Positions 1 to 2,875 of a stretch of 2,875 bases of DNA are shown one piece after another. The stretch lies in the IMG/VR virus record IMGVR_UViG_2693429700_000017. One strand, written 5' to 3'. Under the pieces are notes generated by a model. It ran no database searches and had not been told where the DNA came from. It worked only from the letters and a program-made list of their open reading frames with translations. A program made the translations under genes and the position numbers. The DNA is from a virus (taxonomy: Duplodnaviria > Heunggongvirae > Uroviricota > Caudoviricetes). Each line of letters begins with the position of its first letter. Positions within the stretch are counted from its first letter, which is position 1.

Positions 1-97
1 CCTTTGCGGTAAATTTACATCGCACTCCTCTTGTGCCATAGTAATCGGGCACTGGCAAAATCCAGTGCCGGGATTGGCGTCCCGGATTACTAAAAGG
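1..97. repeat. 97-bp direct repeat, copy 1 (identical to 2779-2875); may extend beyond the window edge
   Basis: Base-by-base comparison of 1-97 with 2779-2875 shows 97/97 identity. Contains the palindrome GTAAATTTAC (9-18) and a hairpin GGCACTGG-CAAAAT-CCAGTGCC (48-69). Confidence 0.9.
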
Positions 98-104
98 CGC
101 ATTC

Positions 105-124
105 ACCGCGCAAGCGGTTTTTTT
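105..124 (+). terminator. Candidate intrinsic terminator immediately 3' of the repeat
   Basis: Stem ACCGC (105-109), GCAA tetraloop (110-113), stem GCGGT (114-118), followed by a run of 7 T (118-124). The stem is only 5 bp, so the call is moderate. Confidence 0.45.
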
Positions 125-281
125 ATGCGTATAGCACGGCCACATTCGTATTATGGTGGGCTGTGTGGGGGCACCGAAAGGTGCGCCGGGTCCTTTTAGC
201 CGGTTACGCCAACCCTGCACAGTTCACCACCAACCGATTGGCGTCGGTAGTGGTGATTAACCAGACTAAAAGGTAACCACT

Positions 282-977
282 ATGACAGCTACAAAAAGCA
301 CGTCCATTTTTTCTTTCGAATCCCAAGCCGATATACGGGTAATCGTCATTAATGGTGAGCCATGGTTTATCGCTTCAGATGTTTGTCGGGCTATAGGCAT
401 AGCAAACCATCGAGATGCTGTTCGAAAACTTGATGATGATGAGAAGGGCGTCGCTTCAACCGACACCCCTGGCGGTGAGCAAGAATCGATCATCATCTCC
501 GAGTCAGGCCTCTACACACTGATCCTCCGCTGCCGCGACGCAGTGACACCAGGCACTATCCCCTACCGCTTTCGTAAATGGGTTACAGGTGAGGTTCTTC
601 CTCAGATCCGCCGCACCGGAAGTTACATTAAAAACTCGCTCCCGCAGGAAGAACGCATAAAGATGGTTGCCGACCAGGTAGCCAACGCCACGGCGTCAGC
701 AGTGATAAAGGCGATGAAGATAGAGAACAAAACCTACAGCGCCCCGCTGAAGCCAGGCTACCGCAGCCTGATTCACTCGCCGTCTGGTGTTCTCGGCCTG
801 ACGGAGAACTCACTGCTGATGAATCTGCTGAACCAGTTACAGGAAGACGGGCACGACGTATCGGGCGCGGCGGCGGAGCTGACCACCATGTTCTGCTACA
901 TCGTCGGTGTGAGCAAATGCCTGCGTGATATCCAGACGCACGCGGAGTACATCAACGACAAAGCAGGGTTCTTCTGA
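282..977 (+). CDS. Bro-N domain protein (phage antirepressor-like, KilA-N/Bro-N superfamily) with an uncharacterised C-terminal half
   Basis: 231-aa ORF with AAGG Shine-Dalgarno (270-273) 8 nt upstream of ATG. The N-terminal ~110 aa carry the hallmark Bro-N pattern: F-x-F, VINGEPWF-x-A-x-DV, LDDDEKG, GG-x-Q, ISESGLY-x-LIL, FRKWVTGEVLPQIRRTGSY. The C-terminal ~115 aa have no motif I recognise. Assignment is from remembered family consensus, not a search. Confidence 0.8.
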   Translation: MTATKSTSIFSFESQADIRVIVINGEPWFIASDVCRAIGIANHRDAVRKLDDDEKGVASTDTPGGEQESIIISESGLYTLILRCRDAVTPGTIPYRFRKWVTGEVLPQIRRTGSYIKNSLPQEERIKMVADQVANATASAVIKAMKIENKTYSAPLKPGYRSLIHSPSGVLGLTENSLLMNLLNQLQEDGHDVSGAAAELTTMFCYIVGVSKCLRDIQTHAEYINDKAGFF

Positions 978-1205: not shown

Positions 1206-1841
1206 ATGCCACAACAACTGCTGAATCCGGCAAAGGTAACTGAGGTTTTCGCTCATCTGAACGAAACTCCAGACAACCGCGCCCTGTATTCAGAGTTAGT
1301 GAACGGCAACGATGTCACATCTGATGTCAAAGGCGTTTCTCTGGCTCCTGGATACCGCGTTGTCCGTGTAGACGATCGTAAGAAAGGCGAGATTCCACAG
1401 GCGCACTTTGAACTGTCATTGATAAATGACCTCACCGAAGAGGTAGTGTATTACAATCGTGTCATTATCCAGCCTGACAGCTATCTTAACTGCCGTCCTG
1501 TCACGCAGATATTGGTATGGAGAACCCAGAAGCCTAAGCATCGTGCTGTGCTTCATGATTTCGCCGGCATCATCTTCATGAACTACCTCTTGGAACGGTA
1601 CGATATCATCGTGTCTGATCGCAACCAGACTCATGAAGGCATGTCGTTCTGGCAGGCTCGCATGTATGACGCACTGGAACTTGGCCTCCACCTCTATGGT
1701 TACGACATGATGACATGCGAGCTGATAGAGATGAATAACGAGGAAGAGCTTGAGAAAGGTGAAACCTGGTTGTGGGGTGATGCGGAAAACTTCCAAAACA
1801 GATTGGCCATAATTTCAAAGCATAAGCTGCCAATAAAATAG
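1206..1841 (+). CDS. Hypothetical protein, 211 aa, no recognisable domain
   Basis: Uninterrupted 636-nt ORF with GAGGT Shine-Dalgarno (1196-1200) 5 nt before ATG, and a canonical intrinsic terminator directly downstream. No transmembrane segment, no signal peptide and no catalytic motif I can name. Acidic C-terminal stretch (EMNNEEELEKGE). Confidence 0.75.
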   Translation: MPQQLLNPAKVTEVFAHLNETPDNRALYSELVNGNDVTSDVKGVSLAPGYRVVRVDDRKKGEIPQAHFELSLINDLTEEVVYYNRVIIQPDSYLNCRPVTQILVWRTQKPKHRAVLHDFAGIIFMNYLLERYDIIVSDRNQTHEGMSFWQARMYDALELGLHLYGYDMMTCELIEMNNEEELEKGETWLWGDAENFQNRLAIISKHKLPIK

Positions 1842-1910: not shown

Positions 1911-1934
1911 AAAAACAAGGCCGCAAGAGCGGCC
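1911..1934 (-). terminator. Rho-independent terminator of ORF3 (minus strand)
   Basis: GGCCGC-AAGA-GCGGCC (1919-1934) read on the minus strand is followed by TTGTTTTT (complement of 1911-1918). The stem overlaps the ORF3 stop codon by 1 nt. Confidence 0.6.
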
Positions 1935-2662
1935 TAGCGTTTCGCTTTGTGCTCGTCCCAGCACGTTTTGCACCATGCCATTAAGCCATCCGCATTTTGA
2001 TTATTAGGGTAAAAGCTGGTTCGTTTTCTGCGGACATTACAAATTGGGCACCACTTCATATGACGTGTATTCTTTGGGCCATCGAGACACCTTGCACACC
2101 ACTTAGTCAATCCATCTGGATTTTTTGACGATTTCCTGAATTTTTCATATGGAAGGTTTATTCTGCATCGCAAACACTGCTTGCGGGCACTTGAAACTTC
2201 GTTAGCTGATTCTTCTTTTGACGGCGATACAGAAGGTATTCTTGCTGGCTCTGATACTGCCTGAGGTGCTTTTCTAGGTGACTGAGACGATACGTCATCA
2301 CCAGGGAATCTTCCATGATATGCCGGACGCGTTAACACCCCAGGTGGAAGCTCTGCTGTAAATGGCTTTGGCTGAATCAGTTGCCTCTCTTTTGCTAACT
2401 CCTGCTGTTTATAATATGTCTGGATTACCGCACTATCATAAGCAGAAGGTGCGGAAATATTAGGCGCATTACCTCCAGTTTTTTGAAACTGAGTAGAGGT
2501 GTGTTCTATCACCTGTGTACGATTAATCGTTATCTCCCCATCTTCGGTCTTTATCGTTTTGTTATGATTAACGACCGTACGATCAGAGATCTTAGTCTTG
2601 TTCTGGTTGATAACGTAAATAATCACCGCAACCACACCAACAACTATCCAGAAAACTTCCAT
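1934..2662 (-). CDS. Membrane-anchored protein with two tandem C4 zinc-ribbon-like repeats (hypothetical)
   Basis: 242-aa ORF with GAGGAA Shine-Dalgarno 5 nt upstream of the ATG (minus strand). N-terminal hydrophobic helix (EVFWIVVGVVAVIIYVI) followed by basic residues. Pro/Ser-rich low-complexity linker. The C-terminal ~72 aa hold two 30-residue repeats with identical spacing C-x2-C-x8-F-x7-DGL-x2-WC-x2-C. This gene is the most AT-rich in the window (hand counts about 35-47% GC in 60-nt samples). Confidence 0.75.
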   Translation of the reverse strand: MEVFWIVVGVVAVIIYVINQNKTKISDRTVVNHNKTIKTEDGEITINRTQVIEHTSTQFQKTGGNAPNISAPSAYDSAVIQTYYKQQELAKERQLIQPKPFTAELPPGVLTRPAYHGRFPGDDVSSQSPRKAPQAVSEPARIPSVSPSKEESANEVSSARKQCLRCRINLPYEKFRKSSKNPDGLTKWCARCLDGPKNTRHMKWCPICNVRRKRTSFYPNNQNADGLMAWCKTCWDEHKAKR

Positions 2663-2774: not shown

Positions 2775-2792
2775 ATTACCTTTGCGGTAAAT
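2775..2792. promoter_or_regulatory. Operator-like palindrome, site A: ATTACC-TTTGC-GGTAAAT, straddling the start of the terminal repeat
   Basis: Half-site ATTACC (2775-2780), 5-bp spacer, half-site GGTAAAT (2786-2792). The right half and spacer recur at window positions 3-14. Overlaps the palindrome GTAAATTTAC. Confidence 0.45.
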
Positions 2793-2875
2793 TTACATCG
2801 CACTCCTCTTGTGCCATAGTAATCGGGCACTGGCAAAATCCAGTGCCGGGATTGGCGTCCCGGATTACTAAAAGG
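2779..2875. repeat. 97-bp direct repeat, copy 2 (identical to 1-97)
   Basis: 97/97 identity with window positions 1-97; it ends exactly at the window edge, so the true repeat may be longer. Confidence 0.9.

Follow-up and report, generated by a model that had tools for sequence, protein, structure and literature searches.

What kind of protein does ORF2 encode, and why does the gene lie where it does? We use "the window" for the whole 2875-bp stretch analysed here, which comes from a tailed-phage record (IMG/VR IMGVR_UViG_2693429700_000017; Caudoviricetes) and contains three substantial open reading frames (ORFs), namely a Bro-N gene, ORF2 and ORF3. According to the ORF list, ORF2 is a plus-strand gene at 1206-1841 that starts with ATG and encodes 211 aa. 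A first-pass annotation, made from the sequence without database searches, described the product as an orphan with no recognisable domain and as a candidate effector or anti-defence protein. The analysis below points to a divergent GNAT (acyl-CoA N-acyltransferase)-like fold, places the protein in a large family and shows that in Escherichia coli its gene occupies a swappable cargo slot, the predicted promoter of which adjoins an operator-like site.

Predicted structure and conserved residues of ORF2

The AlphaFold2 model of ORF2, built on a 44-sequence alignment, has a pLDDT of 84.8 and a pTM of 0.81 and is poorly defined only at residues 1-14, where pLDDT is below 50. Its secondary structure elements follow a GNAT-like order: two helices, four strands, a long helix, a strand, a helix and further strands. 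The model also displays the mixed alpha/beta architecture, the central sheet and the splay between beta4 and beta5 that define the GNAT fold. Foldseek searches, which had been suggested as a check along with structure prediction, led in the same direction. In PDB, the model matched KKT23 (E=3e-5), ICL2 with acetyl-CoA, AAC(2')-Ia and TmcA; MccE and the streptothricin and phosphinothricin acetyltransferases were also among the Foldseek matches. In BFVD, the matches were uncharacterised phage proteins with TM-scores of 0.6-0.73, for example from the Agrobacterium jumbo phage Atu_ph07, followed by NAT_SF proteins. The identity of ORF2 to GNATs in structural alignments is 3-16%. No Pfam or NCBIfam domain is precomputed for any of 112 ORF2 homologues, and searches of PDB sequences with ORF2 itself and with profiles of the close and the distant family returned no GNAT. 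We therefore regard a GNAT-like fold that is invisible to sequence methods as highly probable for the modelled protein. The statement that ORF2 has no recognisable domain holds for inspection by eye and for hidden Markov model (HMM) searches but not for the predicted structure.

An alignment of 45 distant members (22-53% identity) revealed conservation of Y82, Q101, W105, R106, S137, D138, Q141, T142, G145, F148, W149, A156, Y164, W190, G191, I203 and S204. Conserved residues sit at the C-terminal ends of the predicted central strands and in the helix that follows, and in the model they would map to the place where GNATs bind acyl-CoA and substrate. In our reading, T142-x2-G145-x2-F148-W149 reproduces the spacing of GNAT motif B, N-x2-A-x2-L-Y. 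The region of motif A contains basic and small residues, but their spacing is non-canonical (H112-R113-x3-H-D/G118-L/F-A-G); where distant members have G at 118, the result is G-L-A/P. The N-terminal peptide MPxx(L/I) is kept even in distant members. Since M1-P2 is invariant in close relatives, we also considered whether the Pro might serve as a nucleophile in catalysis, in the manner of tautomerases or Fpg. A role of this kind can hardly hold for the whole family, as some distant members have the motif as an internal (M/T/N)PQ or have the Pro after a residue other than Met.

Coding sequence and expression signals

Judged from substitution patterns, ORF2 is a real gene under purifying selection, because between genera synonymous sites are saturated (pS 0.77-0.91) while pN is 0.07-0.35. 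In the alignment of 44 homologues, the mean column identity is 57% and 30 positions are invariant. A Shine-Dalgarno (SD) sequence, GAGGTG, can be read on the plus strand at 1196-1201, with 6 nt between its GAGG core and the ATG; all ORF2 homologues checked have an SD of the GGAGG/GGGGG type at the same distance. The intrinsic terminator occupies 1848-1872 on the plus strand and consists of AAGCCCGCG-ACG-CGCGGGCTT followed by TTTTTT. Its stem (1848-1866) begins 7 nt past the stop codon and has 8 pairs, 6 of them G-C, and the centroid fold of the region is the same hairpin. The Dickeya homologue likewise has its own hairpin terminator. With a terminator of its own in both E. coli and Dickeya and a predicted promoter, ORF2 probably forms its own transcription unit. 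The SD, the canonical terminator and the leader palindrome (TTTACC-CTAAT-GGTAAA, 1150-1166) listed in the first-pass annotation are thus all in place. Its view of ORF2 as a real, separate gene is borne out by purifying selection, by the terminator and by an upstream promoter/operator segment that is kept while the cargo is exchanged, as described below.

A one-gene cargo slot in epsilon15-like prophages

The best full match to the window is in E. coli NZ_AP041805, within a ~40-kb prophage located between yfgI and guaA. The prophage encodes a capsid staple protein, a Bbp16-type cement protein, a T7-gp14-like core protein and a tailspike. With the phages TL-2011b and phiV10 it shares a major capsid protein at 99% identity, which places it in the epsilon15-like group. 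One E. coli strain with the gene is IAI39 (NC_011750, ORF2 at 2758288-2758923). In each of eight different ORF2-bearing assemblies, ORF2 lies between the tailspike and ejection-protein genes and follows an antirepressor whose N-domain is either Bro-N or AntA.

ORF2 is one of several genes found at this position. The Bro protein WP_000127505.1 is followed by ORF2, by a 210-aa paralogue (WP_001260052.1; 30% identical to ORF2, E=2e-17) or by a DUF4760 protein. A YafO-family toxin occupies the slot behind WP_000127504.1, whose coding DNA is 98% identical; a small ORF precedes this toxin gene. DNA identity between cassettes ends at window position 1062 (YafO, paralogue) or 1147 (DUF4760) and resumes at 1847 or 1874, while the segment 978-1062 is present at 98-99% identity ahead of all four alternative cargo genes. 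The breakpoints of the swapped cargo accordingly fall on an operator-like site (1062) and on the terminator (1847). The comparison shows directly that the position after the antirepressor is a one-gene swappable cargo slot. ORF2 has the features of a moron: its own terminator, variable presence and replacement, a location between tailspike and ejection genes and, as a prediction, its own promoter.

Parts of the window are present in 986 genomes. Among 5426 complete E. coli genomes, the paralogue is found in 93, the DUF4760 protein in 82, the YafO-family toxin in 61 and ORF2 itself in 13. None of the alternative cargo proteins has a PADLOC match at E≤0.1.

Operator-like palindromes and the predicted slot promoter

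A candidate promoter for the slot can be read on the plus strand at 1022-1050: TTGCAG (1022-1027), a 17-nt spacer and TACTAT (1045-1050). TACTAT is abutted by an operator-like site, TTACCTCACGGGTGA (1050-1064), which has one mismatch to TTACC-N5-GGTAA and overlaps the predicted transcription start (near 1057). In the YafO and paralogue cassettes this site is the perfect palindrome TTACCTCAAGGGTAA, and it is also the exact end of the DNA that these cassettes share with the window. An exact palindrome, TTACC-CTAAT-GGTAA, lies in the ORF2 leader (1151-1165), 41 nt upstream of the ATG, and two further exact copies (2683-2697 and 2776-2790) are found in the divergent region between ORF3 and isrK.

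These palindromes are far more frequent than expected. With at most one mismatch, TTACC-N5-GGTAA has four matches in the window against 0.04 expected; the exact form occurs 10 times in the ~40-kb prophage, against 0.00-0.02 expected, and nowhere in the flanking chromosome. By our reading of the annotation, most of the 10 are intergenic (locus L001, 11654-14034; locus L078, 4438-15065). Palindromes are present in the 154 bp that separate a divergent gene for a 76-aa Cro-like protein from a 194-aa gene of the Cro/C1-type helix-turn-helix (HTH) class (product WP_000836290.1), which is the CI-like repressor gene of the prophage, and also just downstream of the HTH gene, ahead of recombination genes. 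Another stands in front of an 85-aa plus-strand gene in the late region, and a one-mismatch site precedes a 282-aa gene. Such a layout would correspond to OR-/OL-type operators together with dispersed ones, as in P1.

The arrangement upstream of ORF2 recurs in Dickeya, where the homologous protein is 89% identical to ORF2 and synonymous sites are saturated. There, TTGCAT-17-TAGGAT runs into ATTACCCATAAGGTAAT 70 nt upstream of the start codon. We think that the slot promoter is probably, if not securely, under repressor control, because the 1050-1064 site abuts TACTAT and the same promoter-operator layout is seen in Dickeya. As for the candidate promoter of the first-pass annotation, a promoter scan returned only GTGGCA-16-AATAAT (984-1011), and promoter-like hits were no more numerous than in shuffled sequences. 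That candidate is weak relative to the consensus, and TTGCAG-17-TACTAT is the better-supported one.

The leader also contains a plus-strand micro-ORF of 10 codons, MRKFDEYEGV (1102-1134), with AGGAGG at 1089-1094 ahead of its start. It is common to the ORF2 and DUF4760 cassettes, the homology of the latter extending to window position 1147; neither the YafO and paralogue cassettes nor the homologue loci of other genera have it. The micro-ORF reported earlier is real as a reading frame but is not conserved outside E. coli cassettes, which rules it out as a conserved leader peptide or antitoxin. In the DUF4760 cassette the micro-ORF is followed by a GGGGCC-ATTA-GGCCCC hairpin and a T-run (locus L080, about 3400-3555), which could be an attenuator.

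Several small genes near these operators deserve mention in their own right. The 85-aa ORF, located on the plus strand with the tailspike gene on one side and the cassette on the other, shares 44% identity with the C-terminal part of Bro (residues 146-223) and has its own operator upstream (L001, 11746-12003). An equally long ORF holds the corresponding position ahead of the ORF2 homologue in the Dickeya prophage (locus L072, 6562-6822), where Bro is lacking. The 282-aa gene with the one-mismatch operator is a plus-strand gene in a minus-strand late region (L078, 5077-5925); its product has weak coiled-coil-type PADLOC matches (LmuB, DruC and JetC; E=1.7e-4 to 4e-2), which are probably compositional.

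Distribution and genomic contexts of the ORF2 family

The label "orphan" does not apply to ORF2. The protein matches phrog_1349 (E=2.9e-78) and has homologues in 94 clusters at 90% identity (E≤1e-3) across Enterobacterales, with members from Escherichia, Salmonella, Klebsiella, Enterobacter, Dickeya, Serratia, Yersinia, Erwinia, Photorhabdus, Xenorhabdus and other genera. An exhaustive profile search extended the family to 915 clusters at 50% identity, 410 of them with E≤1e-10. The best 150 of the 915 are 59-273 aa long, mostly near 200 aa, and match over single stretches. The identical ORF2 protein is indexed in 1525 blocks of an assembly collection. Plasmids of Aeromonas and Pseudomonas carry homologues with 37-43% identity, and plasmids of Shewanella and Photobacterium also encode family members. 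No member, including those from the profile search of a 5.8-billion-protein set, has a Pfam domain or an informative name. In the papers searched, the ORF2 accession and PHROG number are unmentioned, and we found nothing relevant on GNAT anti-defence or DUF4760.

How typical is the association of ORF2 with Bro-N and zinc-ribbon genes? The first-pass annotation had proposed a survey for conserved linkage of this kind. Of 53 homologue loci outside E. coli, each from a different species and with 50-66% identity, not one turned out to have a relative of Bro or ORF3 within 6 kb, which rules out conserved linkage; many of these homologues stand alone between core genes. The tie of ORF2 to Bro-N and ORF3 is a local feature, restricted to E. 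coli phiV10/epsilon15-like prophages. Confident homology to a known structural or metabolic protein, or unlinked homologues scattered in core genome contexts, had been named in advance as grounds for abandoning the view of ORF2 as a candidate effector. Something of each was found, namely fold-level homology to an enzyme superfamily and unlinked homologues in core contexts.

Solo homologues include one between ihfA and btuE in Erwinia amylovora and one between ssb and a fec-type transporter in Enterobacter pasteurii. In Photorhabdus and Xenorhabdus homologues occupy core loci, and several genomes have two paralogues; further Photorhabdus copies are in the neighbourhoods of minCD, rnd, ldhA, dapD and glnD. 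One Photorhabdus homologue lies inside a 1553-bp unit bounded by ~127-bp repeats (loci L066 and L068, 6724-8276). These repeats have many copies in the loci concerned and are ERIC-like in size. The identical 1.55-kb unit is found in two unrelated contexts, beside an RtxA-like gene and inside a carotenoid cluster. The copy upstream of the RtxA-like gene raised the possibility of an RtxC-like toxin-activating acyltransferase, but this is ruled out by the presence of the identical gene and repeats in the carotenoid cluster.

Other homologues reside in prophages. In Yersinia enterocolitica, the gene lies within the tail module of a myovirus prophage (the tail assignment follows Pfam names), in Pseudomonas it adjoins the portal gene of a P2-like prophage, and in a Dickeya podovirus prophage it occupies the same slot as in E. 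coli, with no Bro gene. Homologues thus occupy moron positions of unrelated prophages. Isolated phages with a family member are rare: they comprise LLS, Stx-phage-associated contigs and the jumbo phages Atu_ph07 and BCSR5. In phage LLS the gene is the last one, after the spanins. Some distant members (~30% identity; P0274 and P0276) directly follow a MoxR-DUF58-DUF4381 (Bat-type) operon on at least three metagenomic contigs and begin 1-4 nt from where the DUF4381 gene ends, which suggests operon-level coupling in that branch.

Proposed mechanism and alternatives

We propose that ORF2 is a stand-alone, highly divergent GNAT fold protein carried as a one-gene moron. A CI-like repressor would keep the gene off in the lysogen through the palindromes at the promoter and in the leader. 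When the repressor is absent, upon infection or induction, ORF2 would be transcribed from TTGCAG-17-TACTAT, and transcription would stop at the gene's own terminator. With acyl-CoA as donor, the protein would then acetylate or otherwise acylate a specific target, at a site to which the ends of beta4 and beta5 and helix alpha4 contribute (Q101, W105, R106, S137, D138, Q141, T142, G145, F148 and W149). Its most likely role would be in conflict between phage, host and competitor, that is, in exclusion, counter-defence or host takeover. The arguments for and against catalysis appear evenly balanced. The whole chain, acyl-CoA-dependent modification of a target by ORF2 that is switched on without the prophage repressor, is put forward tentatively.

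The candidacy of ORF2 as an effector or anti-defence protein receives some support from the hypervariable slot with its YafO-like toxin and from the predicted repressor-operator control. A bolder version would see the ORF2 family as a new class of single-gene GNAT-like conflict effectors triggered by loss of a CI-type repressor. Such effectors might acylate a component of host defence, a translation factor, or a protein or nucleic acid of a competing phage. The occupants of the slot, namely two 30%-identical alleles, the YafO-like toxin and the DUF4760 protein, would then be analogous weapons, and their variation an arms-race polymorphism. We consider this version distinctly doubtful.

A number of observations weigh against the proposed mechanism. 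TM-scores to solved GNATs are modest, at just 0.35-0.44. ORF2 has no Pfam or NCBIfam match at E≤1, 45 diverse family members have none at E≤0.1, and ORF2 has no match in PADLOC (PADLOC-DB v2) at E≤1. Motif A, canonically Q/R-x-x-G-x-G/A, is not cleanly recognisable, the ORF2 sequence there being H112-R113-A-V-L-H-D118-F-A120-G121, and a short extra helix (110-116) is inserted between beta4 and alpha3. F148/W149 occupy a position that often holds the catalytic Tyr, and the protein's closest structural match is a domain that senses acyl-CoA but is not catalytic. At the DNA level, TTGCAG-17-TACTAT agrees with the consensus at 7 of 12 positions, below the scan threshold, which leaves the slot promoter a prediction; binding of a repressor to the palindromes is likewise suggested by their placement. 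Finally, family members are mostly solo genes in bacterial chromosomes and plasmids and are rare in isolated phages, a distribution that suits an enzyme of benefit to the host no less than a phage weapon.

The structural points raise the possibility that ORF2 is a non-catalytic GNAT-like module, a sensor or inhibitor that binds acyl-CoA or another ligand or docks on a protein. A precedent is found in Mycobacterium tuberculosis ICL2/Rv1916, whose C-terminal domain binds acetyl-CoA. The degenerate motif A with its inserted helix and F148/W149 in place of the usual Tyr fit such a module, as does the invariant, probably disordered MPxx(L/I) N-terminus, which looks like a docking motif. However, the polar residues Q101, R106, S137, D138, Q141 and T142 are strongly conserved in an active-site-like pattern, and most small stand-alone GNAT proteins are enzymes. 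We hold a non-catalytic role to be possible but doubtful.

The distribution of the family bears on a second alternative, in which ORF2 would be an acetyltransferase for resistance or detoxification, directed for instance at an antibiotic, at a toxin of the microcin type or at a metabolite of plants or insects, and benefiting the bacterial carrier. The gene would then be a lysogenic-conversion or housekeeping accessory gene and not a phage-conflict gene. Consistent with this, solo homologues are fixed between core genes in Erwinia amylovora, Enterobacter, Photorhabdus and Xenorhabdus, often as two paralogues per genome, others reside on Aeromonas, Pseudomonas, Shewanella and Photobacterium plasmids, few virulent phages carry a family member, and AAC(2')-Ia, MccE and the streptothricin and phosphinothricin acetyltransferases are among the structural matches. 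On the other hand, these resistance GNATs are no closer to ORF2 than protein or tRNA acetyltransferases. Moreover, the operator shared with the immunity region in E. coli and Dickeya predicts that the gene is silent in the lysogen, and its slot alternates with a YafO-like toxin. We judge this alternative unlikely.

Least probable by a wide measure is a GNAT toxin resembling TacT/AtaT/KacT, which would acetylate aminoacyl-tRNA and arrest translation as an abortive-infection or host shut-off effector or as a toxin-antitoxin member: the slot is common to a YafO-family toxin and the gene appears tightly repressed, with operators at the transcription start and in the leader, but there is no adjacent antitoxin (RHH/DUF1778) gene, only the unconserved 10-codon micro-ORF upstream, homologues stand alone in many chromosomes among unrelated neighbours, and no sequence similarity to GNAT toxins was found.

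If the proposed acyl-CoA-dependent mechanism is correct, a fold and a testable biochemical hypothesis become available for a family of at least 900 clusters that lacks a Pfam model and whose members are named "hypothetical" or "phage" protein everywhere. The phiV10/epsilon15-like slot, with a fixed promoter-operator segment and terminator and exchanged contents, is of a kind that usually yields new defence or counter-defence functions. The dispersed operators suggest that this phage group, like P1, ties scattered accessory genes directly to the main repressor.

Other features of the window

The antirepressor gene ahead of ORF2 (282-977, plus strand) is assigned by Pfam Bro-N (E=2.2e-21) and by phrog_130, anti-repressor Ant (E=3.3e-63). 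Its leader is an immI-like RNA (36-234, plus strand) recognised by Rfam, on the same strand, as isrK (49-124; 77.9 bits, gathering threshold 50), C4 antisense RNA (149-234; 77.7 bits, gathering 45) and c4-a1b1 targets (36-88; 45.1 bits, just below the gathering threshold of 46.7). The leader is of the P1 immI/Gifsy-1 isrK-orf45-anrP type of translational control. The start of the isrK match at 49 is consistent with a TTTACA-17-CATAGT promoter at 14-42. There is no Rfam match in 978-1205, and the possibility that the ORF2 leader is a degenerate isrK leader or an IsrJ-like small RNA is ruled out by a local alignment score of 16 against a shuffle mean of 16.7.

Downstream, ORF3 (1934-2662, minus strand) encodes a protein of 242 aa that matches phrog_6762 (E=2.8e-147); a hydrophobic membrane anchor forms its N-terminus, and two Cys-rich zinc-ribbon repeats lie in the C-terminal part. 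The Cys-rich repeats weakly resemble the zinc ribbons of Stc1, endonuclease VII, Lar-like and HNH proteins. An operator lies 21 nt upstream of the ORF3 start codon. Only one of the eight ORF2-bearing E. coli assemblies has ORF3.

The window ends with a second copy of a 97-bp repeat (2779-2875, plus strand), which is identical to 1-97 and opens another isrK-antirepressor cassette in tandem; isrK and a1b1 are each matched a second time, in truncated form, at 2814-2875. In E. coli NZ_CP148401, isrK leader, Bro, ORF2, ORF3 and isrK leader follow each other in the order of the window (locus L079, 2514-7204), and a second tandem antirepressor cassette, with a YafO-family toxin, comes next. The "repeat-bounded unit" of the first-pass annotation is in fact two successive immI-like cassettes. 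The order of antirepressor, ORF2 and ORF3 within it is real in this genome, but the linkage does not extend to the 53 loci of other species. In NZ_AP041805 the same parts are circularly permuted, with a 26-bp direct repeat (a terminator hairpin) at the junctions. The 97-bp terminal repeat and this permutation could suggest a circular-assembly artefact; such an explanation is not needed, as NZ_CP148401 has the same linear order as the window.

Comparison with known systems

ORF2 resembles GNAT enzymes such as NatD/Naa40, Hat1 and AAC(2')-Ia in its predicted alpha/beta fold and element order, in the conserved residues near the C-terminal ends of beta4 and beta5 and in alpha4, and in the motif-B-like T-x2-G-x2-F-W. 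It differs from them in having no HMM-detectable relationship, a degenerate motif A with an inserted helix, both N-terminal helices before the first strand and the conserved MPxx(L/I) peptide. The C-terminal domain of ICL2/Rv1916 is fused to isocitrate lyase and acts as an allosteric acyl-CoA sensor, whereas ORF2 is a free-standing protein of 211 aa on mobile elements, with 8% identity to that domain. Other GNAT effectors of phages and mobile elements share only the common fold: AcrVA5, which acetylates Cas12a and from which ORF2 differs in size and N-terminus; Mu Mom, a DNA modification protein with Com/Dam-type control that ORF2 lacks; and TacT/AtaT, whose antitoxin partner has no counterpart in ORF2.

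Downstream of the Gifsy-1 antirepressor lies isrJ, a unit with separate termination (PMC4825925). P1 immI (c4-icd-ant) and Gifsy-1 isrK-orf45-anrP-isrJ share with the window the isrK and C4 models ahead of the antirepressor gene. Unlike in those systems, ORF2 lies outside the module, and the antirepressor N-domain (Bro-N or AntA) and ORF2 exchange independently; Rfam gave no IsrJ match in the spacer of the window. In organisation, ORF2 resembles phage morons and hotspots such as lambda bor/lom, phiCTX ctx and P2 old/tin: it is likewise a single gene with its own terminator and a predicted promoter of its own, it lies between gene blocks, and its position is interchangeable with unrelated genes. 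Classical morons, however, are expressed in the lysogen, whereas the predicted ORF2 promoter is overlapped by an operator-like site of the kind found in the immunity region, so that repression in the lysogen would be expected. GNAT morons and cargo hotspots are already known, and ORF2 is best described as an uncharacterised variant within a well-known fold class, carried in a hotspot of a conventional kind.

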